A stretch of DNA of 64,000 bases from Promethearchaeota archaeon (GTDB lineage: Archaea > Asgardarchaeota > Lokiarchaeia > Sigyniarchaeales > SOKP01). A program made the position numbers and the translations under genes. Location: positions 34,973 to 98,972 of the forward strand of contig JAEOTZ010000017.1 of NCBI GenBank assembly GCA_016839585.1, written 5' to 3'. Positions 10,774 to 60,105 of this stretch are shown here, piece after piece; the first letter of the stretch is position 1; each line of letters begins with the position of its first letter. The notes below the pieces were generated by a model that saw nothing but the letters and a program-made list of their open reading frames with translations, was not told the origin of the DNA and did not search any database.

Positions 10774-11817
10774 TTATCCCAATTCAGTTTCAATACATTT
10801 TTTAGCAATTTGCTTAAAGACTTCGGATATGTTTTCACCAGTTAATGCTGATGTTTCATAATAATCAAGGCTTAATTTTTTAGCAATATCTTCTGCCTCT
10901 TTTCTTTTTATCATTCTTTTCTTGGTTAAGTCACATTTATTTCCAATAATCATCATTGGCAAATTATGATTTAATTTTACTTCTTTTATTATATCTTTAT
11001 ACCATTTTGGAATATTCTTAAGAGTTTCAGGATTTGTCAAATCAAAAATTAAGAAAGCTGCCTCTGCTCCTTTGTAATAATGTTTTCTCATCATCTCAAA
11101 TTTTAACTGCCCCGCGATATCCCAAAGAATGAAATTTACCCCCTCTTTATTTATTAATACATTCTTCTCTGAAATTGAAACCCCAATGGTAGCTATATAC
11201 GTTCGCCTAAAGGCATTATCAGTAAATCTTAAAATAGTTGATGTTTTTCCTACTCCGGGATCTCCACAAACGACTATTTTAAACTTATATTTTATAATCC
11301 CTTTATCCTCTACAGGCTCCTCAGGAAATGCTTCAGATTTTAAGACAGATTGTTCTTTTATTCGGAGATCCTCTAATATATTTAAAATTTCAGCACGTAA
11401 ATTATCTATTTGATTAGAAAGGATTTCTTTATTTTCTTTAATATCTTCTATTTTAATTATTTCTTGAGTAATTTTATTAAATGCAGGTTCTAAAAAGCTC
11501 AAATATTTATAAAAAATCAGATCGTCAATTTCACTAAAAAGTAAAGTAATAGATGATTGAGCAACACCACCACGGCGAGATTTATCTTCTTTTTCTATAT
11601 ATTTTATTATACCTTTCGAGGTTAATGATGGGAATGGCATAATTATTAAAGATTTAGGCATTAAACCCTGGTCTGCTGAAAGAATGGTAATTGATTTAAT
11701 ACTAACCGCCATCCGAAAGCTCTCAGGTAAATCAGAAGGATACCATAAAATTGGGTTTGGTCCAAGTTTTTCGTCAAATTCTGTAAATATTATTGCTTTT
11801 ATTAGTTCTTTAGCCAT
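10774..11817 (-). CDS. uDENN/longin domain fused to Rab-like GTPase (start reassigned to MAKELIK)
   Basis: IIFTEFDEKLGPNP (NPRL2/FLCN-type longin start); GDPGVGKT, TIG, WDIAGQ, NKCD, ETSA. The 58 extra codons in the ORF track are AT-rich and absent from the paralog. Confidence 0.88.
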   Translation of the reverse strand: MAKELIKAIIFTEFDEKLGPNPILWYPSDLPESFRMAVSIKSITILSADQGLMPKSLIIMPFPSLTSKGIIKYIEKEDKSRRGGVAQSSITLLFSEIDDLIFYKYLSFLEPAFNKITQEIIKIEDIKENKEILSNQIDNLRAEILNILEDLRIKEQSVLKSEAFPEEPVEDKGIIKYKFKIVVCGDPGVGKTSTILRFTDNAFRRTYIATIGVSISEKNVLINKEGVNFILWDIAGQLKFEMMRKHYYKGAEAAFLIFDLTNPETLKNIPKWYKDIIKEVKLNHNLPMMIIGNKCDLTKKRMIKRKEAEDIAKKLSLDYYETSALTGENISEVFKQIAKKCIETELG

Positions 11818-12036
11818 CGTCAGTTCAGTAAATTTATAACTTAAATAAATATTAGCACTATATATGAATAATTTATATAAATTATAATAATTTAAACATT
11901 TAATCAATTTAAATAAGCATATAAAAAATATGAATGTGGTATTTAACATTATAGGAACTAATTCTTTATTAATTTTATAATAAATCAACAATCTTAGTTT
12001 AGTTTCACGAAGTATAACTTAGAAGTAATCAAATAT

Positions 12037-12310: not shown

Positions 12311-13471
12311 TTATTTTGGTCTTCTTCTTCTTAATATGAAGATTGCTAAGCCAATCACCGCTCCCCCACCAATAACCGAAGATGTGATAATAATTAACTC
12401 TAGAGGAAATGCGTCTCCACCTGTCGGTCCCTCTTTGTAACCAAAATTCACCAGTAACATATCGGAATATGTCACGTAAGTATCTGAAAACCCCCCAAGG
12501 TAGAGATTATCAGAGGAATCCACTGCTCCACAATAACATATTTCACGGTTATCACCACCCCACGTACGATTCCAAAGTTGTATCCCAGAATTATCATATT
12601 TCACCAAAACCATATCATCACCTCCAGCTCCAAAACTACCTGTCTCTCCTGTAAGGTAAATATTATCTGTAGAATCAATTGCAATTCCATAACTACTGTC
12701 AGATAGAGCACCACCCCACGTGCGATTCCATAGTTGCACTCCAGAACTATCGTACTTCACCAGAATTATATCCTCCTCACCTGCGCCAAAGCTGAAGGTT
12801 TCTCCCACAATGAAAATATTATTTGACGAGTCCAGTGCAATTCCAAAGCCACTGTCAGATAGGGCACCACCCCACGTGCGATTCCATAGTTGCACTCCAG
12901 AACTATCATACTTCACCAGAATTATATCCTCCTCACCTGCACCAAAGTTATTTGAAACTCCTACAAGATAAATATTATCTAATGAGTCTACTTCTACTCC
13001 CCAACCGGTATCCACATTAAGAATAGCACTCCCTCCCCACGTACGATTCCAGAGTTGTATCCCAGAACTATCATATTTCACCAAAACCATATCAACACCT
13101 CCAGCTCCAAAACTCCCTGTCTCTCCTGTAAGATACACATTGTCTAATGAATCTACCGTCACTCCATAACTCTTGTCGTAACTACTTCCCCCCCAGGTAC
13201 GATTCCAAAGTAGTGTCCCAGAATTATCATATTTCAGCACAGCAATAGCTGAACTTCCTTGACCAAAACTATATGAATACCCCACAAAATAAATATTATC
13301 TGAAGAATCCACTGCTACACCATTGCCATTTTCGGGGTCGTTTCCACCCCATTTACGATACCAGTTAACTCCAAAAGAATTATTTGTCGATAAAACACTA
13401 GATATTTGTAATATAAAGCTAAAGTACATAACTAATATAACCATTGTTAAGTAAGATCTTTTATTTTTCAT
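12311..13471 (-). CDS. SBBP beta-propeller repeat surface protein with C-terminal TM anchor
   Basis: Signal peptide; repeats of D-LVKYDSSG-QLWNRTWGG...G-AVDS-NIY-G; TM followed by RRRRPK. Confidence 0.88.
   Translation of the reverse strand: MKNKRSYLTMVILVMYFSFILQISSVLSTNNSFGVNWYRKWGGNDPENGNGVAVDSSDNIYFVGYSYSFGQGSSAIAVLKYDNSGTLLWNRTWGGSSYDKSYGVTVDSLDNVYLTGETGSFGAGGVDMVLVKYDSSGIQLWNRTWGGSAILNVDTGWGVEVDSLDNIYLVGVSNNFGAGEEDIILVKYDSSGVQLWNRTWGGALSDSGFGIALDSSNNIFIVGETFSFGAGEEDIILVKYDSSGVQLWNRTWGGALSDSSYGIAIDSTDNIYLTGETGSFGAGGDDMVLVKYDNSGIQLWNRTWGGDNREICYCGAVDSSDNLYLGGFSDTYVTYSDMLLVNFGYKEGPTGGDAFPLELIIITSSVIGGGAVIGLAIFILRRRRPK
12695..12947. repeat. Near-identical intragenic repeat, 156-bp period
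   Basis: 12695-12791 vs 12851-12947 differ at about 3 positions and encode identical GAGEEDIILVKYDSSGVQLWNRTWGGALSDS. Confidence 0.85.
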
Positions 13472-13743
13472 TTATCACTTTCAACTTCTTTTTATATTTT
13501 TTTCTCATTTTCACTTACTCTTTTCTTGTAGATTATAATTAAATGATGAGAGATAGTACCCTTTATAATTGAGCTTCCGATAGTTCCATAGAACTTTCAA
13601 TATCTTGTGATAGTTTCTTAGAAAAAGTATAAATAGATACGAGAATGGTATAAGCATTCTATTAAATAATTAGTTATCTTCTTAGCCAAAATCTAGTTTA
13701 AATTTTTTAAAAGTAAGAGAAAAAAAAAATAATTTAAAAAGAA

Positions 13744-14694
13744 TTAAGATAATTCATAATAAAGTGCTACCATACCCACAGCTGCTAAAATCCCTGCTCC
13801 AATAAATAATATTGCCGACCATTCTGCAGTAAAAAGCACTTCCCAGAAATCAAATTTTACTGGATCTGGATTGTAATTTGTCACTGCCAAAATAATTATC
13901 AAAGTTATAAAGCTTGCAATTCCAAAAGTTATCCCTGCCCATACTGCTAGAGCTAGTAAAATTTTCTTTCCCACTTCATTAATTTCATGGTAGGTCTGAC
14001 GTCGAATGATCTTCTTTAAGCGCTTTAATTCTTGTTTTGGGAACCATTGTTTTGGTCCAAAATGGATTTTCTTATAAGTTTCTTTCGAATAAATGTGGAA
14101 ATTCTCAATAGGATTCTTTGCTATGTTAATATGTGTCGCTGTATTAGGCAAATCTGTTATGTTGAACTCTTTTAATTGATTATTATCAAGGATTACTTTT
14201 TTCAATTTTTGAAAATTTCTAATATTTTCAATTTTTTGGACCTTATTATCACTTAGTTTTAGTATTCTTAAATTTGGAAAATATTCAATTCCCTTCATAG
14301 TTGTTATTTGATTGTGAGAAAGATCCAGCTTTCTTACACGCCAGAGATGATCAAGCCCTTGAATATCAGTAATACTGTTTATGTGTTTACCACATAATTT
14401 TAAGGATTTTGATCCCACACGATGTTGTATTCCTTCAATTATAATATACTTTGGTTCCAAATTTTGTGCTGAAGATGGATTGGGGGTTGTAAATGTATTA
14501 GGTAGCTCTGGTTTGATATCTGTTGATTCTGTAATTCTTAGGTATATAGAAATAATTGCAGTACCGATTATCGATAGTACCATAAGTGTGAGCATCACTA
14601 TAGGATTTAGAGTTAATAGCCAAACCAATAAAAAAAGAACTAGACATTCTACATACCATATCCTTTTTGACCATGGATCAAGATTTTTGTCCAT
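13744..14694 (-). CDS. Leucine-rich repeat protein with N- and C-terminal TM pairs
   Basis: LDLSHNQIT, LKLSDNKVQ, ILDNNQLK LRRs between hydrophobic ends; its ATG abuts the stop of the upstream gene. Confidence 0.85.
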   Translation of the reverse strand: MDKNLDPWSKRIWYVECLVLFLLVWLLTLNPIVMLTLMVLSIIGTAIISIYLRITESTDIKPELPNTFTTPNPSSAQNLEPKYIIIEGIQHRVGSKSLKLCGKHINSITDIQGLDHLWRVRKLDLSHNQITTMKGIEYFPNLRILKLSDNKVQKIENIRNFQKLKKVILDNNQLKEFNITDLPNTATHINIAKNPIENFHIYSKETYKKIHFGPKQWFPKQELKRLKKIIRRQTYHEINEVGKKILLALAVWAGITFGIASFITLIIILAVTNYNPDPVKFDFWEVLFTAEWSAILFIGAGILAAVGMVALYYELS

Positions 14695-17600
14695 TTACTT
14701 CTCCCTTCTTCTAAGTTTTTTAACGATTAATGGAATTGATATTACGGCAATTATTCCCGCTATACTGGTTCCTATAATTATCGGCAACAGATTTGGTTGT
14801 TTTGTTGTTTTTACTTCTTTAACTGTTATGGCTATTGTATCAGCAATAGAATTTCCATACGCGTCAGTAAAATTGATAGTAAAGATGTATTCGCCTGAAG
14901 ATAGACCTTCTGGAATGATATAGACAATCGCCACTCCGCTTGACCAAGAAGCTGGACCTGCTACGATACCAGACCCTTGAAGCTCAATCGTATAGGTATT
15001 TGGATGAGGATCTGTTGCCGTCCATGAGATATTTACTCCAGAATAGCCGTAATCAACCGTAAAATCACTTGGGGCATCTGTTATTACCGGATCTATCGTA
15101 TCTTCAATAGTCATAGTGACTGTATGAGTAGCAAAGTTACCATAGTTGTCTGTAAAGTTAACGGTATAGATGTACTCGCCTACATTTAAACCATCTGGGA
15201 TGGTATAGTTGATTGGAGTATTACTAAGCCATGAATCTGGACCTGCTACGATACCAAATCCTTGAAGCTCAATTAAATAAGTATTTGGATGTGGATCAGT
15301 TGCAGTCCAAGAAATACTTATCCCTGTGTATCCGAACTCGATATTAAAGTCGCTTGGGGTATCTGTTATTGTCGGACCTATTGTATCATCAATAGTCATA
15401 ATAACTGTATCAGTAGCAAATTGACCATAACTATCAGTAAAGTTAATGGTATAGATATATACACCCACATCTAAACCATCTGGGATGGTATAGTTGATTG
15501 GAGTATTGTTAGACCATGAATCTGGACCTGCTACGATACCACTTCCTTGAAGTTCAATGGTGTAAATGTGTGAATGTAGATCTGTTGCAGTCCAAGAAAT
15601 ATTTATCCCTGTGTACCCAAACTCGATGTTAAAGTCGCTTGGGGCATCAATTATTATCGGATCTAAGGTATCAGATATCTCATCTGTAAATTTAGGTCTT
15701 AAAAAGTCTTTTCCAGCAAGACCTTGCCATAATACCTCTTCTCCAGAAGTAGTAGGATTGAGAGCATATATCTTATTATCATCACTCCCTACAATTATTT
15801 CAAGCTTTCCATCTCCATCCACATCTCCCAGAGCAGGTGAGGAAATTATATTTCCTCCCAACTGATAGTTCCAAGCTTTAGTTCCATCTTCGCCGTTTAT
15901 TGCATATATATTATCATCATAACTTCCTACTATTACTTCAAATTTTCCATCACCATCGATATCGCCTATTGCAGGAGATGAATACACTTGATCTCCCGTT
16001 TGAAAGTTCCAAGTTTCAGTTCCATCTTCGCCGTTTATTGCATATATCTTATTATCATAACTTCCTACTACTACTTCAAACCTTCTATCACCATCAATAT
16101 CAGCTATTGCAGGAGATGACATTATCCTACTTGCTGTCGTATAATTCCAAATTTCAGTTCCATCCTTGCCGTTTATTGCATATATTTTGCCGTTATAACT
16201 CCCTACTACTACTTCAAACTTTCCATCTCCATCCACATCGCCTATTGCTGGAGAAGAATAGATATCATCTCCAGTGTTATATTTCCACCTAAGAGATCCA
16301 CTCTCTCCATTTAATGCATATAAATAGTGATCACCACTTCCAATAACTACCTCAAGCTTTCCATCACCATCCACATCTCCCAGAGCAGGCGAAGAAATGA
16401 TAATGTAATTCGTCTTATGACTCCATAATACACCTCCATTCTCTCCATTTAGGGCAAATATTCTACCATCATAGGTATTACCAAAGATTACCTCAAGCTT
16501 TCCATCCCCATCCACATCTCCCAGAGCAGGTGAAGAATCTACATCACTTTGAGTATCAAACTGCCATATCAGGTTCCCATTTTCACCATTTAGAGCATAT
16601 AAATAATTATCGTCACTTCCCACTACGACCTCAAGTTTACCATCCCCATCAATATCTCCAAGAGCAGGTGAACATGAAATACTACTCCCAGTTGCGTAAT
16701 TCCATAGCTCAGTTCCATCTTCACTATTTAGAGCATACACCTTGTCATCATGGCTTCCGATTATAACTTCGAGTTTCCCATCCTCGTCTATATCTCCTAA
16801 TGCTGAAGAGGAAGTTATATCGTCTCCTGTTGGGTAATTCCATAATTCTGAAACCAATGGAAAGGACTTCATTCTGTAAAAGTCAGTGCCGGCTAATCCT
16901 TGCCATACGATTTTTTCTCCAGAAGGAGTAGATTTTATTGCATATACTTTATAATCATAGCATCCTATTACTACCTCAAGAGTCCCATCTCCATCCAAAT
17001 CACCTAATGATGGAGAAGACCTAACTAACCCACCCGTCTGGTATGACCAAGATATACTTCCATCCTTACCATTAATTGCATACACTTTTCGGTCATCGCT
17101 TCCAATCACTACTTCGAGCTTTCCATCACCATCCACATCACCTATCGCAGGAGAAGACCATACTTGGTTTCCTGTTGAGATTTTCCATTCGACACTTCCA
17201 TCTTCTCCGTTGAATACGTACACATAATTATCAGTATTTCCAATGCCTGACTCAGTACTTCCAACCACTACTTCTAGTTTTCCATCACCGTCCACATCAC
17301 CTAAAGCAGGCGAAGACCATACAATTGACGCTTCTGTGGCGCGCCACCATGCAGTAGTACCGTCTTCTCCATTTAGAGCATAAACTCTGGAATTTGAAGT
17401 TCCGAATACCACTTCAAGCTTTCCATCCCCATCTATATCTCCTATAGCTGGAGATGAGAAGCAGTTAAGGTTTCTAGACCATACAGGGGTTCCATCCTCA
17501 CCGTTAAATACATAAGTACCCGCAACGACCTCGAGTTTTCCATCACCGTCCACATCGCCCAATGAGGGAGAATATGCTGCACCACCTAAATATTCCCATA

Positions 17601-18186
17601 GCACACTTCCATTTTCACCGTGTAATACTTTTATGTTTCCAGTACTTCCAGAAAACAAAATATGTACTACTACTTCAAGTTCCTCATCTCCATTTACGTC
17701 GCCCAGAACAATAGGATTATCTACAACACCGCCAAATTTTGTTGTCCATTCAGTATTTCCAGTCAGACTATTCAAAGAATAAACATGTTGATTCGTACTT
17801 CCTATTAATACTTCCAAATATCCATCATCATCAACATCGCCTATTGCAGGAGATGAGTGTATACTATCCCAACCATCTCCCGTTTTATGATCCCACATCA
17901 GGCTTCCAGATTCACCACTTAGGGCATATATAGTACTATTATGACTTCCGAAGAACACTTCAAGCTTCCCATCGTGATCTACATCAAATAGTGCAGGGTT
18001 ACAATATACTTGATCATCAGCTTGAAAACTCCATAATAACGAGGCTGTTGCTGAAGTATTCAATTCGCTTTCCATAGTATTAAAGTGGTTTTCCATTTTC
18101 GTATCTTGAATAACTGTTGTTGCTGCAAAAATAGTTCCTAAAATCAGTACTATAATAACAATTTTTGGGTTTATGATTTTTTTCAT
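14695..18186 (-). CDS. FG-GAP/PQQ-like repeat double beta-propeller + three Ig-like repeats + C-terminal TM (large surface protein)
   Basis: Many SSPA[IL]GD[VI]DGDGKLEVV-GS-D--VYA-NGEDG---W repeats with DxDGDG Ca-binding-like motifs; three P-ITDAPSDF...YTINFTD-YG repeats; TM then KKLRRREK. Confidence 0.88.
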   Translation of the reverse strand: MKKIINPKIVIIVLILGTIFAATTVIQDTKMENHFNTMESELNTSATASLLWSFQADDQVYCNPALFDVDHDGKLEVFFGSHNSTIYALSGESGSLMWDHKTGDGWDSIHSSPAIGDVDDDGYLEVLIGSTNQHVYSLNSLTGNTEWTTKFGGVVDNPIVLGDVNGDEELEVVVHILFSGSTGNIKVLHGENGSVLWEYLGGAAYSPSLGDVDGDGKLEVVAGTYVFNGEDGTPVWSRNLNCFSSPAIGDIDGDGKLEVVFGTSNSRVYALNGEDGTTAWWRATEASIVWSSPALGDVDGDGKLEVVVGSTESGIGNTDNYVYVFNGEDGSVEWKISTGNQVWSSPAIGDVDGDGKLEVVIGSDDRKVYAINGKDGSISWSYQTGGLVRSSPSLGDLDGDGTLEVVIGCYDYKVYAIKSTPSGEKIVWQGLAGTDFYRMKSFPLVSELWNYPTGDDITSSSALGDIDEDGKLEVIIGSHDDKVYALNSEDGTELWNYATGSSISCSPALGDIDGDGKLEVVVGSDDNYLYALNGENGNLIWQFDTQSDVDSSPALGDVDGDGKLEVIFGNTYDGRIFALNGENGGVLWSHKTNYIIISSPALGDVDGDGKLEVVIGSGDHYLYALNGESGSLRWKYNTGDDIYSSPAIGDVDGDGKFEVVVGSYNGKIYAINGKDGTEIWNYTTASRIMSSPAIADIDGDRRFEVVVGSYDNKIYAINGEDGTETWNFQTGDQVYSSPAIGDIDGDGKFEVIVGSYDDNIYAINGEDGTKAWNYQLGGNIISSPALGDVDGDGKLEIIVGSDDNKIYALNPTTSGEEVLWQGLAGKDFLRPKFTDEISDTLDPIIIDAPSDFNIEFGYTGINISWTATDLHSHIYTIELQGSGIVAGPDSWSNNTPINYTIPDGLDVGVYIYTINFTDSYGQFATDTVIMTIDDTIGPTITDTPSDFNIEFGYTGISISWTATDPHPNTYLIELQGFGIVAGPDSWLSNTPINYTIPDGLNVGEYIYTVNFTDNYGNFATHTVTMTIEDTIDPVITDAPSDFTVDYGYSGVNISWTATDPHPNTYTIELQGSGIVAGPASWSSGVAIVYIIPEGLSSGEYIFTINFTDAYGNSIADTIAITVKEVKTTKQPNLLPIIIGTSIAGIIAVISIPLIVKKLRRREK

Positions 18187-18289
18187 ATTTTTCACTTCCT
18201 TTGTTTTATAAATTATTTTTTTTAGATTTTGACAATTTTATATAATTGGAAAAAAAAATTTGATTGTTATATTTAAAGAAAAAAGAGTA

Positions 18290-18395
18290 TTTTCCTAATG
18301 TACGATGCCATTCGTATGTATATGTTATCCTTATCCCCTCTTTACCTTTTTTTAGTTTTCGTATTTATTTTTCCCTTCTCCTAAGTTTTTTATTA
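18290..18395 (-). pseudogene. Mosaic of gene remnants (KKLRRREK* end and YEWHRT start)
   Basis: 18365-18391 encodes KKLRRREK*, as at the end of the FG-GAP gene; ~18299-18316 encodes YEWHRT, as at the mature start of 18427-20310. Confidence 0.6.
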
Positions 18396-18426
18396 GAATA
18401 TAATATCTTTCAAATTTTATTGGGAT

Positions 18427-20310
18427 TTAGCTCATCCTTCTTTTTCTAATATATACTACAACTGCAACGCCAATCACTGCTCCTCCACCAACAGTCGTTG
18501 TTAGAATTATTAATTCGAAAGGAATTTCTGGTTCTTCATTTTTCTTTACTTTTTCTATAATTACTTCACTATGCCCAATATTTCCTACGAGGTCTTTAGC
18601 CCAAAACTCCATTGATATGCTACCATATGAAGCAGCTTCCCATGCAGTTTGATTTATTGTCCCTGTCTCGTGAATAATACTGAAGTTAGTAATACCATTA
18701 TCAATAGTATACCATATTGAATCCAAATTTGGTTCTATGAGTGAGATATCATAATTAGGAGCGTCATCACTGAATTTTTCTCCTTGAGAGGGTTTATTTA
18801 TAGTAATTTTAGGGTCATCAATATCTTTAAAGATTGTAACCTCAGCATGTCCTTTTTTACTAAAGGTATTATTCGCCCAAAATGTAATATTTATCCAACT
18901 AGTTCCTTCTTTTTCCCATTCTGTTTGGTTTATTGTTCCAATCAGTCCACTAAATATAATATTAGATAATCCATCATCTAACGTATACCATGTAGAATCT
19001 AAATTTGGTTCAAGAACAGAAATATTGAAAGTTGGTGCTAAAATTCCAAATAACTCATTTTGTTGTGGCGAATTAATTACAACTTCTGGAATCTTACAAT
19101 ACTTCACCAAAGCAATATCTTCAAGACCAACTTCTGTTATTCCCCCGAAATACACATTTTCTGATGAATCCAATGCTATTCCAAAACCCATATCTCTTAA
19201 ACTTCCGCCCCATGTGTAATACCATTGCTCCTCACCAAGAGAATTATATTTCACGAGAGTCATGTCAAACAATCCCGTACCAAAACCAACTGTTGTCCCT
19301 GCAAAGTAAATATTATCCGAAGAATCCACCGCTATTCTGTTACCATAATCGGTACTAATTCCGCCCCATGTACGATACCACTGCTGCACACCAGTACTAT
19401 CATATTTAAGTAAAACCATATCGCTATCTCCCGCTCCAAAACTTCTTGTTCTTCCTGATACATACATGTTATCAGATGAATCTACAGCCACACCCAAACC
19501 ATAATCCCAATTACTTCCGCCCCATGTTTTATTCCATTGCAGTATTCCAGCACTATCATATTTCTCCAAAAGTATGTCTTTAAGTCCTGCTCCAAAATAT
19601 GTGTCTCCTACAAGATAAATATTACCTAATGAATCCAAAGCTAATGACGTACCGAGACTTCCAATTTCACTCTCGGTATTAATCCACTGTAGTACCCCAA
19701 AACTGTCATATTTCACTAGAACAACGTTACCGAAGCTCTCTGTATATCCCGTAATATACACATTATTTGCTGTATCTACAGTTATCCCCAAACCTTCATC
19801 ATCTTCAGTCCCACCCCATGTGCGATTCCACTGTTGTACTCCGTCACTATCGTATTTCACTAGAACAATATCAGAACCTCCTGCGGTGTAACTTTGGGTG
19901 TTCCCTACAAGATAAATAAAGTTTGTTGAATCAACAGCTAAATCCGCACCATAATCGTAATTTACTCCACCCCATGTACGATACCACTGCTGCACTCCAG
20001 CATTATTAAATTTCACCAGAACAATATCAGTCCCACCTGCCCCGTAACTCTCTGTGTATCCCACAACATATATATTATCTAACGAATCTATTGCAACTCT
20101 ACCACCAATATCACTTAAACCACCACCCCAGGTACGATGCCACTCATATTCATGTGAAATGCTTGTAGATGATTTAATTTTAATGTTTCTATTATCTTCA
20201 TCACTTTGTCGATTAGAAATAATATTTTTTCCCTGGAATATAAAGCTAAAACACAGAATTAAAATAAATACCGCTAAATATGTTTTTTTCATTGAGTACT
20301 TTTTTTTCAT
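18427..20310 (-). CDS. SBBP beta-propeller + two Ig-like domains + C-terminal TM
   Basis: Signal peptide, seven WxRTWGG-type repeats, two EPNLDS-WYT-D-G domains, tail IPFELIILTTTVGGGAVIG...RKRR. Confidence 0.88.
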   Translation of the reverse strand: MKKKYSMKKTYLAVFILILCFSFIFQGKNIISNRQSDEDNRNIKIKSSTSISHEYEWHRTWGGGLSDIGGRVAIDSLDNIYVVGYTESYGAGGTDIVLVKFNNAGVQQWYRTWGGVNYDYGADLAVDSTNFIYLVGNTQSYTAGGSDIVLVKYDSDGVQQWNRTWGGTEDDEGLGITVDTANNVYITGYTESFGNVVLVKYDSFGVLQWINTESEIGSLGTSLALDSLGNIYLVGDTYFGAGLKDILLEKYDSAGILQWNKTWGGSNWDYGLGVAVDSSDNMYVSGRTRSFGAGDSDMVLLKYDSTGVQQWYRTWGGISTDYGNRIAVDSSDNIYFAGTTVGFGTGLFDMTLVKYNSLGEEQWYYTWGGSLRDMGFGIALDSSENVYFGGITEVGLEDIALVKYCKIPEVVINSPQQNELFGILAPTFNISVLEPNLDSTWYTLDDGLSNIIFSGLIGTINQTEWEKEGTSWINITFWANNTFSKKGHAEVTIFKDIDDPKITINKPSQGEKFSDDAPNYDISLIEPNLDSIWYTIDNGITNFSIIHETGTINQTAWEAASYGSISMEFWAKDLVGNIGHSEVIIEKVKKNEEPEIPFELIILTTTVGGGAVIGVAVVVYIRKRRMS

Positions 20311-20383
20311 ATTTTTCACTTGTTTTGTTTTCAAAATTGATTTTTATTAGATTTTGACAATTAGAGATTAATTCTCCTAATTA

Positions 20384-21252: not shown

Positions 21253-22554
21253 ATGGCATTAAATTGGACACCAGAAGTCATTGCTGGATTTATTAACACA
21301 GGTATATTACTATTTTGTGCTACGCTTACATACACATCACCGAAGACAAAGAAGATCATCTCAGTTGCATACATTAGAATGGCATGGATCTTTCTTTCCC
21401 TGTTTTTTTTATTTGAAGGAGTTTCAATTCTCACGTTAAGTTTAGCAATAACAAGATTTTATACCCTCTTCATGGCAGCAGGAATTATTTTCTTTTTAAT
21501 GGGGATAAACTATACTATGAAAGAGCGTCTATATTCAATCGGTCTAATGGTTGTAGTTATATTATCGCTATCGCTATTATACCTCCCATTTCAAACCGAG
21601 GTTGCAGATATCATAATTGAAGGAGGATATAATACCACAGATCTTCTTGGTATTTACAGTATTATTAGCGACTTATTATTTTTAATTGTAGCCATTTATC
21701 TTTTTGTTTGGGCGATAAAGACATGGAGAAATGCCCCTTTCTTAATAAAGACAGAAGCCACAATATTTTTCTTGGCATTAACTATATCATCAGTAATTAT
21801 GATGATTGTTTATCTTTTTTATTATTTCAATCCTATGTTTATTTTAATATCGGATCTTATATTCGCGGTTGGTATCTTTGCATTTACCTATTCAGTCATA
21901 AGAGAACCAAAGCTACTTTATATCTTACCGTTTGAAATTAGTCGAATTGTAGTAAAAGACAGGGATGGCTTTCCTTTATTCGATCATGATTGGTCAGAAT
22001 CGAAAATTAGTGAGTCTATGTTTACTGGTTTTATTAATGCGGTACAACTAATGAGTGAGGAGGTTATACATAAAGGTGGTGTATTAGATATAGTTTTAAC
22101 TGATGGTATTCTAATACTACGAGAATCAAGATATATTACTGTAGGTTTAGTCGCGTCCAAATCATCTAAGTTATTGAGAACTTCATTAATTAATTTTGCT
22201 AATGAGTTTGAGGAAAAGTTTTCAAAGTTATTAAAAACTTCATGTAGAAACATAGAAGAGTATGATGGAGCATATGAACTTCTCGATAAGTATTTCTCAA
22301 ACTTTCCATCCAAATTAATATCTAGTAAAAAGGATGCTTTATATTTAATTGCGAAATATAAAGAAATTCCACTTGAATTAGAAAATAAGTTAAGAGGTCT
22401 TATTACAGACGAGACTGACTTTGAGAAGATTAAAGAAGAGTTTAGGAAATTTCCTAAAGGTGTTCCATACCACTTCATGAATTTTTATGAAAATAACAAG
22501 GATACATTAGCATTCAGGGATGAAAAAGAATTATCCGATAAAACTCAAGAATAA
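21253..22554 (+). CDS. 7TM membrane protein with cytoplasmic longin-like domain
   Basis: About seven TM segments, then IVVKDRDGFPLF...MFTGFINAV...GLVASK; 6 nt downstream of the wHTH gene. Confidence 0.72.
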   Translation: MALNWTPEVIAGFINTGILLFCATLTYTSPKTKKIISVAYIRMAWIFLSLFFLFEGVSILTLSLAITRFYTLFMAAGIIFFLMGINYTMKERLYSIGLMVVVILSLSLLYLPFQTEVADIIIEGGYNTTDLLGIYSIISDLLFLIVAIYLFVWAIKTWRNAPFLIKTEATIFFLALTISSVIMMIVYLFYYFNPMFILISDLIFAVGIFAFTYSVIREPKLLYILPFEISRIVVKDRDGFPLFDHDWSESKISESMFTGFINAVQLMSEEVIHKGGVLDIVLTDGILILRESRYITVGLVASKSSKLLRTSLINFANEFEEKFSKLLKTSCRNIEEYDGAYELLDKYFSNFPSKLISSKKDALYLIAKYKEIPLELENKLRGLITDETDFEKIKEEFRKFPKGVPYHFMNFYENNKDTLAFRDEKELSDKTQE

Positions 22555-23022: not shown

Positions 23023-24072
23023 TTATAAATCATCCTTTAATGATTCATATAAAGCTTTGGCAATGTTATAAAAAGCTTGTTCAACATTTTCTCCTGTTAA
23101 GGCTGAAGTTTCTATATATTTAAGGTTCAAATTTCTTGCTATCTTATTTGCTTGTTCAAACCCAACAATTTTTTCATTAATTAAATCACTCTTATTACCG
23201 ATTATAAATCCTATAATTTCTCTTGTCTTTTTCAATTGACTTTCAATATCTTGATACCATCTTGGAATGCTATCAAAAGATTTAGAGTTAGTTAAGTCAA
23301 ATATTAGGAAAACAGCGTCTGTTCCGAGATAAAACTGGCGCCTCATGGTTTCAAACTTTATCTGCCCAGCAATGTCCCAAATCACCAATTGAACAACAGA
23401 ATCATCGATTTTAAAGGTTCGATCTGAAACCACGACTCCTAATGTTGGAATGTACCTTCTTCTAAACGCTTTTTTAGTAAATCTTAAAATTAAAGAAGTT
23501 TTACCAACACCAGGATCTCCACAAATGCTTATCTTAAATTTGTAATCAATAAATTCAGAAGTTTTTCTTGATATTTCAGGAAAAGCTTCCATATCTGGAG
23601 CAGAAGTTTCTTTTACTTTCAACTCATATAATACATTTAATATAACTCTTTCAAGTGTTTTTATCTCGTTTATAATATATTTCATATCTGCTTTTGATTT
23701 TTCTAACATAATGATTTTTGCAGTAATTTCATTAAAAATTAACTCAAGATTATTCTTATATTTATAAAATATAACGTCATCAACATTTTTAAAAAGTACA
23801 GTAATAGCAGATTGACCAATATTACCTCTACGAGATTCATCCTCCCATATTATATATTTAATCAATCCCTTTAAATTTAGTGAAGGAAATGGAAGAATTA
23901 CGAGAGATTCTGGAACCAGACCATGTTCACCAGAAAGAATTGTAATAACTTTTATACTGATATGCATTTGATTTTCAAGAGAAAACTCAGAAGGAAGACA
24001 AACAATAGGATTTGGTCCGAGTTCATCGTTAAGCTCGATATATAAAACCGCAGTTATGATATCTTCTTCCAT
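23023..24072 (-). CDS. uDENN/longin domain fused to Rab-like GTPase (paralog of 10774-11817)
   Basis: LYIELNDELGPNP...DESRRG; GDPGVGKT, WDIAGQ, NKSD, ETSA. Confidence 0.9.
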   Translation of the reverse strand: MEEDIITAVLYIELNDELGPNPIVCLPSEFSLENQMHISIKVITILSGEHGLVPESLVILPFPSLNLKGLIKYIIWEDESRRGNIGQSAITVLFKNVDDVIFYKYKNNLELIFNEITAKIIMLEKSKADMKYIINEIKTLERVILNVLYELKVKETSAPDMEAFPEISRKTSEFIDYKFKISICGDPGVGKTSLILRFTKKAFRRRYIPTLGVVVSDRTFKIDDSVVQLVIWDIAGQIKFETMRRQFYLGTDAVFLIFDLTNSKSFDSIPRWYQDIESQLKKTREIIGFIIGNKSDLINEKIVGFEQANKIARNLNLKYIETSALTGENVEQAFYNIAKALYESLKDDL

Positions 24073-32501: not shown

Positions 32502-33413
32502 GTGAAAACTATGTTAAATTTTGAAAAAGAGCAAAATATTGTAGAAATTGGAAATGTAAAATTAGGTGGTCAACCAGGAGAAAATTCAATAGTTCTAATT
32601 GGTACTGTATTTTATGCAAGACATAAAGCATTATTAGATGAAAAGATGGGAAAAATCGATAAAAATATGGTTGAAAAGGAAGTTAATGAATTTATAAGTA
32701 TAGTTGATGAGAATGGAATGCAAGCAATTATTGATATAGTAGGTGCCTACCCTGAAGCACTTTTAAAAGAATGTGAATATATAGCAGATCTTGTAGATTG
32801 TCCATTCTTAGTTGATGGTTTAAATGATTCAAGTAGGATTCCTGCAATGGAAGGATTGCAAGAAAAAGGATTGTTAAATAGAGCGATTTTGAATAGCATT
32901 GATGAGAATACAACTATTGAAAATCTTGAAAAAATTAGAGATATTGGAGTTAGAAGTGCGGTATTATTGAGTTTTGGGAGTAAATATATTTTTCCTCATC
33001 AAAAATTGCATTTACTACAAGAAAAGTTGATACCTAATGCCCAAAAAGCAAATATAGAAAATTTAATTGTTGATACTGCTGTTTTAGACTTGCCCTCAAT
33101 TGCAATCAATGTTGAAACAACAAGATTAGTTAAAAAAGAATTAGGAATACCAACTGGTTTTGCTCCTGCTAATGCAATATATGGTTGGGATTTTGTTAAA
33201 AAATATGGTGATATACCCCGGTGTGGTGCGATCGCATCCCTTATGACTTATTGTGCCTCAGCAGGAAGCGATTTCATTTTATTTGGCCCAGTTAAATTTG
33301 CTAAATGTATTGTACCATCAATTGCTTTAATTTCTGGTATTAATTCTTATTACAGAAAGCGGATTTTAAGAAAATCAATATCAGAAAAAACACCATTGAA
33401 ACTTATCTTTTAA
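32502..33413 (+). CDS. mtrH: MtrH-family pterin-binding methyltransferase
   Basis: GGQPGEN-IVLIGTVFY--H, PFLVD, ILNSI, LIVDTAVLD, LG-PTG-APAN, DFILFGPV; no other mtr subunits nearby. Confidence 0.8.
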   Translation: MKTMLNFEKEQNIVEIGNVKLGGQPGENSIVLIGTVFYARHKALLDEKMGKIDKNMVEKEVNEFISIVDENGMQAIIDIVGAYPEALLKECEYIADLVDCPFLVDGLNDSSRIPAMEGLQEKGLLNRAILNSIDENTTIENLEKIRDIGVRSAVLLSFGSKYIFPHQKLHLLQEKLIPNAQKANIENLIVDTAVLDLPSIAINVETTRLVKKELGIPTGFAPANAIYGWDFVKKYGDIPRCGAIASLMTYCASAGSDFILFGPVKFAKCIVPSIALISGINSYYRKRILRKSISEKTPLKLIF

Positions 33414-34912
33414 GAAATATATCTTAAGAGTAAATCTTTAGTGTAATCTAAGAAATAGTCTAATTGCTCATCAATTAATTCTTCTTTAGATTCATCATCA
33501 ACTAAAAATAAAATGAACATATTATTATCAGTAATATTAATTTTTCTAAAGATAATTACAGAATCAGCCACTTTAAAAATTGCTTCTTCTTTTTGTAAAG
33601 CCTTAAACTTAGAAAATATTTTATATATAATAGCAAACTGAGGTGCTGTAATCTCAAATACGTTAATAAGTTCAGATTCAGGAATTTCAATCAATTTTTT
33701 TGCTTCAGAAGAATAGAAATCAGCAAGAACTAAACCATCTGTACTTAATAATAATGTTAAATAAACATTCGTTTTCATAGAAAAGGTTTTAAGATTATAA
33801 TTGATTATCTCTCTATTTGGACTTAACTTTGAAATACCTGAAGAAAATGCTCTTAAAATTGTAAAAATTTGAAAAATGCTCGTTATATGGATTTCAAGAG
33901 AATCGTCAAGATTGATTTCTCTTAATTTTTTTTTTATAATTCTGACATTTTCTTGGATTTCATCAGAATTTAATATATCTGAATCCCCTTTTGACAAAAT
34001 AAATATTATTGGTGTTTGTTGATTATATTCATTTAGAATTTTTTTAATATTCAGTAAATAATCAATACTTTCTTCGAATCTATCTCTATTTTTAATATCA
34101 ATAAAGTAAAATAATAAATCTGCTTCATATAGATAAATATGAGCTTTGCTAAGATACCTTTTTCTATAAACCAATTGGCCACCTAGATCCCATAAAAATA
34201 TTGTAGCTCCAAGGGCTTCAATAGAATTCACTTTAGCTCCGGTAGTAGGCTTTAAACCAATTAATTTCGAGTATTTTCGGTCAACTGATAATAGAAAGGA
34301 AGTTTTTCCGGAATCATCGAGTCCTGAAAATAAAATTTTCATTTTTCTTTTACTGGTTATAATTGTTGATGGTGCTTTTTCAATTTCAATTAACTTTTTT
34401 AACAAGTTTTTAAACAGGGGTTCGATTTCTTCCTTTTTTTTATAACCATTAAATAATTCTATATCAAATTCAGTAAAAAATTCTAAAACTAGTGGCTTTA
34501 TCCGATTTATATTATTATATAGAAAACTTCTACTATTTTCATCAACCAATATAGAAAAACTCGTAGCAAGAGGAGATTCAGTAAAATTAGTTCTTATATA
34601 ATGAAAAAATGTTAATGAGGTTGCATTAAAATCAGGATGAGGTAGGATTGCGAAATATTGTACTTTTTGGAAATCATCATCAATCGATATTTTTCTATCA
34701 CTTATAAATAAGCTTAAATTTTTTATTGAAATTTGGGTATAATCGCGCAAGGTTAGTTTGAATAAATTTTTTTCATTGATTTCTGCAGAATACTCTTTAA
34801 ACTCAATCTCACTGATAAATTCAGGAAACATATAAAATGGTTGAGGACCTAACTTATCATAGGTACTAAAAACAAGACCCTTAATAACTGAATATTCAAA
34901 TAATTCTTCCAT
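33410..34912 (-). CDS. uDENN/longin + Arf/Rag-like GTPase + roadblock fusion
   Basis: VFSTYDKLGPQP; GLDDSGKTS, PT-G, WDLGGQ, SKGD, TSIF; LLLSTDGLVLA roadblock. Confidence 0.85.
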   Translation of the reverse strand: MEELFEYSVIKGLVFSTYDKLGPQPFYMFPEFISEIEFKEYSAEINEKNLFKLTLRDYTQISIKNLSLFISDRKISIDDDFQKVQYFAILPHPDFNATSLTFFHYIRTNFTESPLATSFSILVDENSRSFLYNNINRIKPLVLEFFTEFDIELFNGYKKKEEIEPLFKNLLKKLIEIEKAPSTIITSKRKMKILFSGLDDSGKTSFLLSVDRKYSKLIGLKPTTGAKVNSIEALGATIFLWDLGGQLVYRKRYLSKAHIYLYEADLLFYFIDIKNRDRFEESIDYLLNIKKILNEYNQQTPIIFILSKGDSDILNSDEIQENVRIIKKKLREINLDDSLEIHITSIFQIFTILRAFSSGISKLSPNREIINYNLKTFSMKTNVYLTLLLSTDGLVLADFYSSEAKKLIEIPESELINVFEITAPQFAIIYKIFSKFKALQKEEAIFKVADSVIIFRKINITDNNMFILFLVDDESKEELIDEQLDYFLDYTKDLLLRYIS

Positions 34913-36765: not shown

Positions 36766-37731
36766 TTGGAAAAAGGTCAATCCATCTTATACCTGAAAAA
36801 AGAAATGGAAGAAAAACCAATTCAAAATAAGATATTATTCACAGGATTGGACGATGCAGGGAAGACAAGCATTATTTTAAGCCTTCAGCGAGAATTCTCT
36901 AAGATCGCATTACTTTCTCCTACAAGAGGGGCTCAGAGAAGAATATTCAATTTTCTTGGAAAAGAAATATCAGAGTGGGATTTAGGAGGGCAACTTAGCT
37001 ATAGAATATCATATTTAAAGAGCCCGGGTAAATTTTTTGATGGAACAGAAATTGCAATATATGTTATAGATATTCAGAATAAAGCACGGATTTCTGAAGC
37101 TATTAGCTATTTTAAAGATGTAGTAACACAATTTAGGAAGTTGGAAATAGAGCCACCTATTTATGTTTTTCTGCATAAATATGATCCAGCATTAAAAAGA
37201 AATGCTAAGAATGAAATGACAAACCTTATTTTAGATATAAAAGAAAAATTTAAAAAAGCTACAGATTATAAAAAACTTTTTTATTATGAAACATCGATTT
37301 ATGATTTTTCTTCAATTATAACAGCAATGAGTGAAATTCTTTTAAGTTTATATCCTAAATCTGAATTAATAGCAAAAACAATTCAAGAATTTGCTAAAAA
37401 AATAAATTCTGAAGGAGTAGTTGTAATTGACGATAATTCTCTTATTATTGGGTCTTATTATAAGGATGAAGAAGTAAAACATCTCCTCAATGCATCAACA
37501 CCTTATTTCTTAACCCTTAATGATTCGTTTGAATTTACTGATGTTATGGAAGAAAGATATGAAAATAGAATGATTGTTCAAAGATTTGGAAGAAATTTTA
37601 TTTTTAAACAGATCACAGTGAAAAAGGGATTAACACCCTATTATCTACTTCTACTTAAAGGAGATCCAATATTCCGGAAAGAAGATTTTGAAACGTTTGC
37701 TAGTTTATTAAGAGAAATCTTATACAAATAA
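36766..37731 (+). CDS. Rag-like GTPase with C-terminal roadblock domain
   Basis: GLDDAGKTS, PTRG, WDLGGQ, HKYD, ETSIY; VVVIDDNSLIIG. Confidence 0.88.
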   Translation: MEKGQSILYLKKEMEEKPIQNKILFTGLDDAGKTSIILSLQREFSKIALLSPTRGAQRRIFNFLGKEISEWDLGGQLSYRISYLKSPGKFFDGTEIAIYVIDIQNKARISEAISYFKDVVTQFRKLEIEPPIYVFLHKYDPALKRNAKNEMTNLILDIKEKFKKATDYKKLFYYETSIYDFSSIITAMSEILLSLYPKSELIAKTIQEFAKKINSEGVVVIDDNSLIIGSYYKDEEVKHLLNASTPYFLTLNDSFEFTDVMEERYENRMIVQRFGRNFIFKQITVKKGLTPYYLLLLKGDPIFRKEDFETFASLLREILYK

Positions 37732-42059: not shown

Positions 42060-43523
42060 TTGCCTAAATCAAATTTAAAATCAAAAGAAAGTAAAGCAAC
42101 TGAAGAAAAGCCAAATGAAAAAAAAGAGAACATAATAAAATCAATTGTTTTAAGTATTTTTGATGAGAATGGCCCTACTCCAAAATTATATTGGCCTCAG
42201 GAGTTAGATGATAAAGCCCGTTTCTCCATCGCAATGAAAACAATCTCACTTTTAATGGGAGAGAGCACTTACCAAAACGGAACTGAAACAGAAGGGATTA
42301 ATTATTTTGGAATCCTACCCTTTCCTGATTTAAAGTTAAACGGTTTGACTTACTTTTTTTTGATCCCTGAAGCAAAAGCGCGGGGGCAAGCTTTAGCATC
42401 AACAATCACAGTTTTAATAGATGAAGAGGATAAGGTATTTTTCTATGAAAATATGAAATATTTACGGATTATTATTGATAGAGCAGCTACAAGAATACAA
42501 GATTCTAATAATCCTAGTGAATATAAGGAGATTTTGGCTAATTTGAGAGTAGAATTGTTTGAATTTACTAAAGAATTAAAAGATCCTTTATCTCCTAGAA
42601 GACAAATAAAAATTTTATTAACAGGCCTCGATAAAGCTGGTAAAACAAGTTTTCTTTATGGAGTAAAGAGAAAATACTCTGAAATTATCAAATCACTTCC
42701 TACTAAAGGAGTTGATAGGACAGAAGAAAAAATTTTTGAGGAACAAAACTCTACTATTACTATTTGGGATTTAGGAGGACAAAAACAATATAGAGAAAGA
42801 TTCCTTGAACAAGGAAAGGTTTATATATATAATATTGACTTGATGTTCTTTTTTATTGATATACAGGATATTGAAAGAATTAAGGAAGCACTATCTCTAT
42901 TTAAAAATATATTGAATTCATTGAAAGAATTAGATGAGTATCCACCAATTGTAGTTTGTTTAAATAAATTTGATCCAGATTTGAAAGGTTCTAAAGAAAT
43001 ATTTGAAAGTTTAGAAGTTATAGCAGATGAAATCAACGAAAATACTGATACTTTTTTCATAAAAATTTTTCAGACATCTATTTTTGATCATTGGTCATTA
43101 ATTACTGCTTACTCTTATGGTTTATCACAGTTAAGTCCAAACCGGGAATTATTTAGGAATCAATTAAGAAAATTCGCGAAGAAAATAAACTCAGATTCAA
43201 TATTATTGCTAAATGAAAATGGTATTATATTATCAACCTATTCAAAATCTGAAATTTACGAGAAGGTATTTGAAATTTCAGCACCTCATTTTGAAACTTT
43301 ATATAAAACATTCAAAGAATTTAAACTATTGAAGAAAGATTTTATTGTATCATCAGGAATAACTGATGAATCCAAAAAAGTAGTCTTTAAAAAGATTATT
43401 GTCGAAAAGTACAATTTGTATTTACTTCTCTTTATAGAAAAGACTCTTGATCTAGAAAAAATTGAGAAAAACTTACCTAATTTTTCAAAGAATCTTATTG
43501 ATTTAATTCATACGTATATTTAG
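42060..43523 (+). CDS. uDENN/longin + Arf/Rag-like GTPase + roadblock fusion
   Basis: VLSIFDENGPTP...EAKARG; GLDKAGKTS, WDLGGQ, NKFD, TSIF; LLLNENGIILS. Confidence 0.87.
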   Translation: MPKSNLKSKESKATEEKPNEKKENIIKSIVLSIFDENGPTPKLYWPQELDDKARFSIAMKTISLLMGESTYQNGTETEGINYFGILPFPDLKLNGLTYFFLIPEAKARGQALASTITVLIDEEDKVFFYENMKYLRIIIDRAATRIQDSNNPSEYKEILANLRVELFEFTKELKDPLSPRRQIKILLTGLDKAGKTSFLYGVKRKYSEIIKSLPTKGVDRTEEKIFEEQNSTITIWDLGGQKQYRERFLEQGKVYIYNIDLMFFFIDIQDIERIKEALSLFKNILNSLKELDEYPPIVVCLNKFDPDLKGSKEIFESLEVIADEINENTDTFFIKIFQTSIFDHWSLITAYSYGLSQLSPNRELFRNQLRKFAKKINSDSILLLNENGIILSTYSKSEIYEKVFEISAPHFETLYKTFKEFKLLKKDFIVSSGITDESKKVVFKKIIVEKYNLYLLLFIEKTLDLEKIEKNLPNFSKNLIDLIHTYI

Positions 43524-57429: not shown

Positions 57430-58146
57430 TTAAAATTTGTGGCCACAGGCAGTACAAAATGTGGCGTCTGCTTTATCAATTTTTGTACCACATTCGGGAC
57501 AAAAGCGAGCAACCTTAGCTTCTTCAGGAATTGGAGTTGGAGTGGGAGCAGGTGTTTTTGCCACAGGAACTGGTTTCTCTACTTGAGGAATAGCTTTTGG
57601 CTTACTAATAACTTCTTCTCTACCAATCGCCTTACCTATAATTGCTCCTAAAAGCGCTAATCCACCTCCAATAAATGGGGCAATAACCGCAAAACCGGGA
57701 TTATAATCATAATCGTTCCAAAAACTAATATGGTAGGGTGCCCCTTGGTTAGACCAATAAGCTCCAACACCTATCTCTACACCTGCTATAAAAATAATTG
57801 CCCCTATAATAAGAAGAATACCTAAAGCAATCCATGAACCAGGTGTTTCTTTTCCTCTATGAGTAAGAGCTGAGACAAACAATATAATTGTACATACAGT
57901 TAATAATATTGTAGCAATAATTCCAGGAATAACATATCCAGGAATAACTTCCCCTGTAAATGGTTCTGCAAAAAAACCAGTTTCGGAGCCATAAGCTCCA
58001 CCAGTTATTAGCATAAAACCTGTCATCCAAACAAATGAATGATATATTCCATGAGCTTCATATGCTGCAGGAGTAAAAAGACCGATTGCAACAAGGATGG
58101 CGCCAATAAATGGGCATAACCAAATAAAATCTCTAGCCTCTGCCAT
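57430..58146 (-). CDS. Four-TM membrane protein with C-terminal double-CxxC zinc ribbon, copy 1
   Basis: Four TM, Pro-rich linker, FCPECG...FCTACG; ATG after AGGTGA. Confidence 0.85.
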   Translation of the reverse strand: MAEARDFIWLCPFIGAILVAIGLFTPAAYEAHGIYHSFVWMTGFMLITGGAYGSETGFFAEPFTGEVIPGYVIPGIIATILLTVCTIILFVSALTHRGKETPGSWIALGILLIIGAIIFIAGVEIGVGAYWSNQGAPYHISFWNDYDYNPGFAVIAPFIGGGLALLGAIIGKAIGREEVISKPKAIPQVEKPVPVAKTPAPTPTPIPEEAKVARFCPECGTKIDKADATFCTACGHKF

Positions 58147-60084: not shown

Positions 60085-60105
60085 CTAGTTTTTTTAGTAT
60101 TAATA

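Follow-up and report, generated by a model that had tools for sequence, protein, structure and literature searches.

The window considered here, a stretch of 64,000 nucleotides from the genome of a Promethearchaeota archaeon (GenBank assembly GCA_016839585.1, contig JAEOTZ010000017.1, positions 34,973 to 98,972), encodes four proteins in which a longin domain is fused to a small GTPase. The longin domain of one of these fusions, P0001 (10774..11817, minus strand), is supported by sequence comparison and by structure modelling as a homologue of the longins of folliculin (FLCN), NPRL2 and SMCR8, which belong to GTPase-activating proteins (GAPs), and it carries a conserved arginine, Arg82, in the loop equivalent to that of the FLCN arginine finger, so that these GTPases may possess a GAP of their own. 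Nutrient signalling in eukaryotes uses longin GAPs, namely folliculin, GATOR1 and C9orf72-SMCR8. Among these, the FLCN-FNIP complex acts on RagC/D, the NPRL2-NPRL3 pair of GATOR1 on RagA/B, and C9orf72-SMCR8 on Arf and, possibly, on Rab8/11.

The coding part of P0001 (10777-11817, stop codon at 10774-10776, ATG at 11817) specifies 347 amino acids (aa); its translation, EDKSRRGGVAQSSITLL, includes Arg82-Gly83. The mechanically delimited open reading frame on the minus strand (10774-11991) begins at a TTG located 58 codons upstream of this ATG, and the resulting extension is hydrophobic and of low complexity. Because the homologues are 341-354 aa long and lack the extension, the start of P0001 is probably the ATG at 11817 and not the TTG up to 11991. 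Homologues of this length number 192, all in Asgard metagenome-assembled genomes, and are labelled by source as Promethearchaeota (Lokiarchaeia), Hodarchaeota and Hermodarchaeota. In the full-length AlphaFold model (54 homologues; predicted local distance difference test, pLDDT, 81; predicted template modelling score, pTM, 0.60), the chain consists of a longin, a helix, a linker and a G domain. The longin (aa 1-126; 11440..11817, minus strand), as delimited in an AlphaFold2 (AF2) domain model, has the order strand-strand-helix-strand-strand-strand-helix-helix; it is followed by a connecting helix (aa 130-161) and the linker, together at 11296..11430, the linker of about 15 residues (approximately aa 162-174) being modelled with low confidence (pLDDT below 50 at 159-173).

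The C-terminal part of P0001 (aa 175-347; 10777..11295, minus strand) is a Rab-like G domain that matches the Pfam family Ras (PF00071) with an E-value of 2e-50, with a P-loop GDPGVGKT (aa 185-192; 11242-11265, minus strand) and a switch II DIAGQ (11107-11121, minus strand) in which the catalytic glutamine is kept, and with NKCD. Its top Foldseek matches are Rab8 and Rab1, at 31-32% identity and a template modelling (TM) score, by target, of 0.88-0.91. The second longin-Rab fusion, P0002 (23023..24072, minus strand; coding 23026-24072, 349 aa), shares 50% identity with P0001; its translation, EDESRRGNIGQSAITVL, has Arg82-Gly83 at 23824-23829 and also Gly19-Pro20, and its C-terminal half matches PF00071 with an E-value of 9e-48. 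The motifs GDPGVGKT, DIAGQ, NKCD/NKSD and ETSAL of the Ras superfamily are found in these two proteins, and neither P0001 nor P0002 ends in a prenylation cysteine of the CC, CXC or CAAX type, for which reason we speak of Rab-like proteins and not of Rabs. The third fusion, P0003 (42060..43523, plus strand; coding 42060-43520, 487 aa), combines a longin (approximately aa 21-150), a Rag/Arf-like G domain from aa 184 to about 345 and a roadblock domain; in its translation, PEAKARGQALASTITVL, the Gly-Pro pair is encoded at 42171-42176 and Arg108-Gly109 at 42381-42386. It matches Pfam Gtr1_RagA (PF04670; E 2e-26 over aa 184-399) and, among PDB sequences, the Lokiarchaeota Rag-like GTPases 8yl2 and 8zla/9m28, as well as Gtr1/RagA including the C-terminal domain; the roadblock tail of P0003, like that of the fourth fusion, P0273, is assigned from sequence matches that reach into the C-terminal domains of LokiRag, Gtr1 and RagA.

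A preliminary description of this DNA had quoted a motif string from each of P0001, P0002 and P0003 and had inferred a GTPase and a GAP-type domain on one chain. The three strings are present in the translations of the genes to which it assigned them, and the C-terminal halves are GTPase domains by Pfam. Its label 'uDENN' can be retained only in the sense of 'longin': in P0001 the longin is followed by the helix, the flexible linker and the G domain, with no DENN-like or NPRL2-specific domain, and no central or downstream DENN module comes after it. Since a Rab or Rag domain and no DENN follows the longin, P0001 is a relative of the longin domain of FLCN, NPRL2 and SMCR8, and not an orthologue of any of these proteins as a whole.

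The assignment of the longin to the GAP class is supported by fold and by sequence comparison. An AF2 model of the P0001 longin alone, built on 115 diverse relatives (pLDDT 92.8), has the longin fold, namely a five-stranded sheet (strands at 6-15, 19-26, 58-62, 67-77 and 85-95) with one helix on one face (32-48) and two C-terminal helices (96-104 and 106-126). In the PDB, Foldseek finds first 8yqg, a Lokiarchaeota Roadblock-Longin protein (E 4e-6), and next the NPRL2 chains of GATOR1 (E 5e-5 to 1e-3), with Npr2, DENND10, FLCN and SMCR8/C9orf72 further down. An exhaustive structure alignment of the model with 48,161 PDB representatives by VIA also places 8yqg at the top (Z 15.4, root mean square deviation, rmsd, 1.9, 122 residues aligned), followed by Lst4 (Z 11.5, rmsd 2.6, 112 aligned), FLCN (6nzd_H; Z 11.1, rmsd 2.7, 117 aligned), C9orf72/SMCR8 (7o2w_A; Z 10.8), NPRL2 (8fw5_B; Z 10.2, 21% identity), Npr2 (9.8) and FNIP2 (9.7). 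Lower in the ranking come the C-terminal domains of Rags and roadblocks (about 9.3), Mon1-Ccz1 (8.7), TRAPP and DENND1A (8.4) and the longin of VAMP7 (7.5). The eukaryotic neighbours in the ESM Atlas are clusters of SMCR8, NPR2, Avl9 and DENND11; a Heimdall cluster that is partly annotated as Folliculin (PF11704) is found there with a TM score of 0.84, and a feature search of the same resource leads to a Promethearchaeota cluster with NPR2 hits. On the sequence side, 17 of the 115 family longins match Pfam Folliculin, P0239 with a score above the curated cut-off (28.7 vs 23.3 bits); weak matches to Afi1 (in three members) and to DENND11 (in one) are also seen, while the P0002 longin, scanned whole and in fragments, has no Pfam match.

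To compare individual residues, Pfam Folliculin (PF11704) was used as a common ruler. The finger of FLCN, Arg164, falls on position 61 of this profile, 39 residues of the FLCN fragment being aligned with positions 44-82. In a 40-residue fragment of P0239, 30 residues are aligned with positions 49-78, and Arg115 occupies the same position 61; each aligned stretch has as many residues as the part of the profile that it matches, so that the alignments are presumably ungapped. In the family alignment, Arg115 of P0239 is matched with Arg82 of P0001, and a weak direct match of P0003, below the cut-off (E 0.03, 14.5 bits) and beginning in the same register, also puts its Arg108 on position 61. For NPRL2, the ranges of the structure alignment (model 4-128 vs chain 5-117, 112 aligned) place Arg78 within residues 77-89 of the model, which is compatible with the loop but not decisive.

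The position in the fold is the expected one as well. In the model, the strands 67-77 and 85-95 are joined by a hairpin loop that contains Arg82-Gly83; this is the beta4-beta5 loop Asp78-Gly84 (11566..11586, minus strand), in which the candidate arginine finger is encoded at 11569-11574. Gly19-Pro20 begins the strand 19-26; this pair and the aromatic-Asp pair Phe14-Asp15, which stands four residues upstream of it and was noted from its conservation, form the beta1-beta2 turn (11758..11778, minus strand). By longin topology, the beta1-beta2 and beta4-beta5 hairpin loops are neighbours on the same edge of the sheet. The arginine fingers of DENN-type GAPs are likewise found at longin beta4-beta5 (bioRxiv 10.64898/2026.01.05.697756), and the GP motif has been described as specific to GAP longins, those of Asgard archaea included, and as adjoining the arginine finger, both motifs being absent from non-GAP longins (PMC12290439). 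The spacing from Phe14-Asp15 to Gly19-Pro20 is the same as that of W33-D34 and G38-P39 in C9orf72 (numbering from PMC12290439). Thus, the fold searches, the match at position 61, and the GP motif with its spacing support the part of the earlier interpretation that concerns homology.

A search with the longin alone among 1.84 billion cluster representatives yielded 152 clusters, and conservation was counted in 118 representatives of clusters at 50% identity, which were aligned to the profile of the family. Conservation in the longin is highest at six positions, Pro27, Tyr103, Pro20, Gly19, Arg82 and Gly83; the two motifs hold ranks three to six, with Pro20 in 103, Gly19 in 102, Arg82 in 100 and Gly83 in 97 of the 118. 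High conservation is also seen for Phe14 (85/118), Asp78 (84/118) and Asp15 (70/118), while Arg81 varies across the family, so that the conserved arginine of the pair is Arg82. By length, most clusters are of 340-360 aa (longin-Rab), some are of 470-525 aa (longin-Rag-roadblock), some are short, and a class of about 287 aa has the longin behind an N-terminal domain (Roadblock-Longin proteins). Approximately 70 of the 118 representatives have a C-terminal extension of the size of a G domain, which makes fusion the commonest context of this type of longin.

With Arg82-Gly83 and Gly19-Pro20 among the most conserved positions in 118 representatives, the Arg-Gly motif is more than chance. The idea that an unrelated domain resembles the FLCN/SMCR8 loop by chance could draw on the shortness of the motif and on the failure of the P0001 longin to match any Pfam family on its own; it is, however, contradicted by the conservation throughout the family, by the Pfam Folliculin matches of the relatives, by the profile position shared with FLCN Arg164 and by three independent searches in which GAP longins are the nearest eukaryotic folds, and we consider it hardly credible. 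For the P0001 family, these data show the identity of the domains, the class of the fold, and the conservation and equivalence of the motifs.

How could such a protein work? We consider P0001, P0002 and P0003 to be multidomain small GTPases of Asgard archaea, the longins of which keep the signatures of the pocket, namely the aromatic-Asp pair, Gly-Pro and Arg-Gly. The longin domains would pair, and the pair would provide a platform where one of the tethered G domains docks; Arg82 (Arg108 in P0003) would then reach the gamma-phosphate and speed GTP hydrolysis, so that the protein would carry its own off-timer. To this built-in GAP, in which a pair of longins lets Arg82 accelerate hydrolysis by the tethered G domain, we assign somewhat less than an even chance; dimerization of the longins, docking of the G domain and catalysis are all inferred for these proteins. 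By analogy, a dimeric state is plausible because the homologue 8yqg has been solved as a dimer and because the GAP longins of eukaryotes work as pairs, as all the known ones do. The 8yqg longin, the only member of this longin family with a solved structure, is a true sequence homologue (profile E 7.5e-15) with a GP motif and is a dimer according to the title of the entry; however, it has Lys-Glu-Pro-Glu-Lys where ten relatives from its subfamily have an invariant Ala-Arg-Gly, and it cannot show the finger because the member that was crystallized lacks the arginine. It also differs from P0001 in the partner domain, which is an N-terminal roadblock in the former and a C-terminal GTPase in the latter. 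We located no relevant literature on the entry 8YQG or on 'LokiRagM'. By its length, the linker of P0001 would let the G domain reach the longin of the same chain or that of a partner, which is a matter of geometry and not evidence. For a complex of two longins, the G domain of P0001, GTP and Mg, structure prediction returned a median score of 0.20 vs a mark of 0.32; it is used here neither for nor against the proposal.

If the finger acts in cis, the longin and the G domain might be expected to change together, and there are suggestive signs of this in the sequences. Among the longin-Rab representatives, Gly-Pro is lost in 12 of the 15 that lack Arg-Gly vs 5 of the 51 that have it (Fisher p 4e-7), and a proline at the position of Ras Gly12 in the P-loop (GDPxVGKT) is present in 41 of the 51 with Arg-Gly vs 5 of the 15 without it (p 0.001). 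The P-loop proline, which most members of the family have, is replaced mainly in a clade that is also devoid of the longin Arg-Gly. An association of this proline with the arginine would be of interest with regard to the packing of a finger against the Gly12 position of Ras, but the covariation is only suggestive of coupling in cis: the tree of the 66 longin-Rab representatives has only 5 changes of Arg-Gly, and significance is out of reach with 4-5 independent pairs.

Several points weigh against a built-in GAP, or against the homology on which it is based. The two associations just described stem from approximately 5 changes on the tree and are not phylogenetically independent. The 40-residue FLCN fragment around Arg164 is validated only by its match of 46.6 bits to PF11704 and by the known numbering. 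The P0001 longin, scanned whole and in fragments, has no Pfam match even at E 10, and HMMER searches of the PDB sequences with P0001:1-130, the family profile A3, P0239 and the Roadblock-Longin profile A4 reached only 8yqg, with no chain of FLCN, NPRL2 or SMCR8. The GAP longins are ahead of the roadblock folds by just 1-2 units of Z, although this margin is consistent across the searches. The arrangement of the domains in the full-length model is of low confidence (pTM 0.60), and docking and catalysis are proposed from sequence and predicted models. Finally, the conserved pair Asp78...Arg82 might just as well form a salt bridge with a structural role in the hairpin.

The last point leads to the alternative that the longin is a platform for dimerization or scaffolding, a GEF-like (guanine nucleotide exchange factor-like) module or one that binds effectors, with no GAP activity, and that Arg-Gly and Gly-Pro are structural or bind a ligand other than a nucleotide. 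Most longin/roadblock platforms are, indeed, GEFs or scaffolds (PMC10933270); Asp78, which stands four residues before Arg82 and is found in 84 of the 118 representatives, could pair with it; the longin-Rab clade without Arg-Gly and Gly-Pro keeps an intact-looking G domain (Gln, NKxD), so that the fusion survives without the motif; and the crystallized relative 8yqg has no arginine either. Nevertheless, both motifs occupy the same sites as the catalytic signature of the three eukaryotic GAP complexes, a signature that non-GAP longins lack (PMC12290439), and longins of the GEF and SNARE types are more distant in fold. We regard a purely structural or scaffolding role as unlikely.

The second alternative leaves the finger catalytic but directs it elsewhere: the longin would be a GAP that acts in trans on free-standing GTPases, and the fused G domain would be a regulatory or localizing switch that gates it. 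The clients could be sought among the many single-domain Rab-like proteins and in a Rag-like GTPase without a longin that is encoded in the window (36766..37731, plus strand; 321 aa, G domain and C-terminal domain; Pfam Gtr1_RagA E 4e-27), which is a possible substrate in trans. Such an arrangement would resemble that of FLCN, which acts on one Rag while being held by the other, and the longin GAPs of eukaryotes all work on separate polypeptides (PMC12290439). The gene for the longin-less Rag-like protein is situated between the two longin-Rag-roadblock genes, in related genomes as well as here. Furthermore, the Roadblock-Longin proteins of about 287 aa have the invariant Ala-Arg-Gly and no fused GTPase, which implies that the arginine needs no G domain in cis. 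What speaks against action in trans is that fusion to a G domain is the prevailing context of this longin and that no conserved operon partner accompanies P0001 or P0002. On balance, action in trans seems to us somewhat unlikely, and we prefer, tentatively, the built-in GAP.

The fourth fusion, P0273 (33410..34912, minus strand; coding 33413-34912, 500 aa), was not listed in the preliminary description and was found with the family profile. It has the same longin-Rag-like-roadblock order as P0003, from which it is 7 kb away and with which it shares 32% identity; Pfam Gtr1_RagA matches it at aa 192-406 (E 8e-21), and an insert of about 20 residues follows strand 2. Pairwise comparison shows that it keeps Gly22-Pro23 (34844-34849, minus strand) and that its beta4-beta5 loop (34568-34597, minus strand) is devoid of Arg-Gly, and the same absence of Arg-Gly is seen in its orthologues from 10 other genomes of the family. 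The orthologues of P0273 and P0003 share a contig in at least 16 genomes, at a distance of 6-20 kb, and they are divergently oriented where the positions were compared; a longin-less Rag-like gene (about 316-339 aa) often lies between them. P0003, P0273 and the gene at 36766-37731 may form a conserved, loose 'Rag island'.

This combination of an arginine-bearing and an arginine-less Rag-type fusion is the most interesting extra of the window. The eukaryotic pairs FLCN/FNIP, NPRL2/NPRL3 and SMCR8/C9orf72 also consist of one subunit with the arginine and one without it, and P0003 and P0273, each with a Rag-like G domain and a roadblock, likewise call to mind the Rag heterodimer. Within the proposed mechanism, the two would form an asymmetric heterodimer. 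In a bolder version, which we consider quite unlikely, the heterodimer would unite, in two chains vs the four of eukaryotes, a Rag heterodimer joined via the roadblocks and an asymmetric longin GAP pair with a single arginine, comparable to FLCN-FNIP or SMCR8-C9orf72; the asymmetries of the Rag dimer and of the longin GAP would then have arisen together, before eukaryotes, and the longin-Rab fusions would represent a symmetric form, made of homodimers, of the same self-timing device.

Both components of the P0001-type proteins, the fusion architecture and the motif, are already published, and the window contributes further members. Lokiarchaeum was described as having longin-GTPase fusions in 2016 (Klinger 2016, in the summary of PMC4917890), reports of NPRL2-like longins and longin-Rag fusions followed in 2020 (Liu et al., bioRxiv 10.1101/2020.10.19.343400), and longin-GTPase (L-G) and longin-GTPase-roadblock (L-G-R) architectures of Rab-like and Rag-like classes were described in Prometheoarchaeum MK-D1 (Tran et al. 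2024, PMC10933270); the domain orders of these published Asgard proteins are identical to those found here. In these three sources, as examined here, a catalytic-type arginine in the fused longin is not discussed. Asgard longins of a 'Folliculin/SMCR8-type', with the GP motif and an arginine finger, were, in turn, proposed to share the GAP activity of FLCN, NPRL2 and SMCR8 (Traffic 2025, PMC12290439). The longins of the window are of the same class and have both motifs at the same structural places; that study, in its text as examined here, covers 15 proteins with deposited models, leaves the partner GTPases open and makes no mention of a fused G domain, whereas here the longin is joined to Rab-like or Rag-like G domains.

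With the eukaryotic longin GAP complexes, the P0001-type proteins share the longin fold, the GP motif, the arginine at beta4-beta5 and a small GTPase as the client. They differ in that the eukaryotic GAP and its GTPase are separate chains and the GAPs, in which the longin is succeeded by a C-terminal domain that is DENN-like or specific to NPRL2, form obligate heterodimers located at the lysosome, whereas P0001-type proteins have no DENN module, carry the GTPase on the same chain and possess a GAP activity that is putative. A comparison can also be made with the prokaryotic MglA-MglB system, in which a small GTPase is paired with a dimer from the roadblock/longin superfamily, MglB being the GAP; MglB, however, has the roadblock and not the longin topology and is further in fold from the P0001 longin (Z 8.4). 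To our knowledge, MglB supplies no arginine finger. The monomeric DENN GAPs (Avl9, DENND6A/B, DENND11 and Afi1; bioRxiv 10.64898/2026.01.05.697756) also have the arginine at longin beta4-beta5, and Avl9 and DENND11 are near folds in the Atlas; they differ in acting as monomers and in holding the GTPase's switch regions with a cDENN subdomain, which P0001 lacks.

These comparisons bear on the evolutionary part of the preliminary description. Membership of the N-terminal domain in the FLCN/NPRL2/SMCR8 class of longins is upheld by three structure searches and by the Pfam Folliculin matches of the relatives, and the equivalence of the arginine-bearing loop by the position 61 shared with FLCN Arg164 and by the site of the loop in the model. 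The further suggestion that the fusion represents an ancestral state of these regulators is not supported by these data: the multidomain architectures of Asgard archaea have been described as products of lineage-specific domain shuffling, and separate longin-DENN proteins resembling FLCN are known from Heimdallarchaeia (Liu et al., bioRxiv 10.1101/2020.10.19.343400).

Of 301 genomes that were sampled from the phylum, 158 have this type of longin, as do all 68 genomes in the family to which the window belongs; it was not found in several other families (0 of 76, 0 of 19 and 0 of 11 genomes searched). The two longin-Rab genes are neighbours in other genomes of the genus, where 1.2-2.1 kb separate their starts; in the window the distance is 12 kb, and the block between them (12311-20334) looks like an insertion. 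This block has a G+C content of 35-37% vs about 27% and encodes beta-propeller (SBBP, FG-GAP/PQQ) and leucine-rich-repeat surface proteins, one of them of 1166 aa. No conserved operon partner was found beside P0001 or P0002, the genes nearby coding for a beta-propeller surface protein, for a protein with DUF2769 and for unassigned membrane proteins.

The window as a whole has a G+C content of 27-30% and comes from an assembly that is 99% complete, in 91 contigs. Elsewhere in it, convergent with P0002, a gene at 21253-22554 (plus strand) encodes a protein of 433 aa that has no Pfam match; its N-terminal half is a multi-pass membrane region and its C-terminal half is soluble. Two large open reading frames, 51698-55255 (minus strand, 1185 aa) and 49338-50999 (plus strand, 553 aa), belong to no Pfam family, and four tandem paralogues of 235-241 aa are located at 57430-60813 (minus strand); a zinc-ribbon stands at the C-terminal end of the two that were scanned, 57430-58155 and 59362-60084.

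Taken together, these data do not reveal a new kind of system, and the significance of the fusions is of a different sort. In the manner of a 'Rosetta stone', the joining of a GAP-type longin to a Rab-like or Rag-like G domain hints at the partner GTPase of the Asgard GAP-type longins, a use of the fusion that we did not find stated in the published texts examined. Along with this hint, the proteins of the window offer small, soluble-looking, single-chain objects with which it could be tested whether the GAP chemistry of longins predates eukaryotes.

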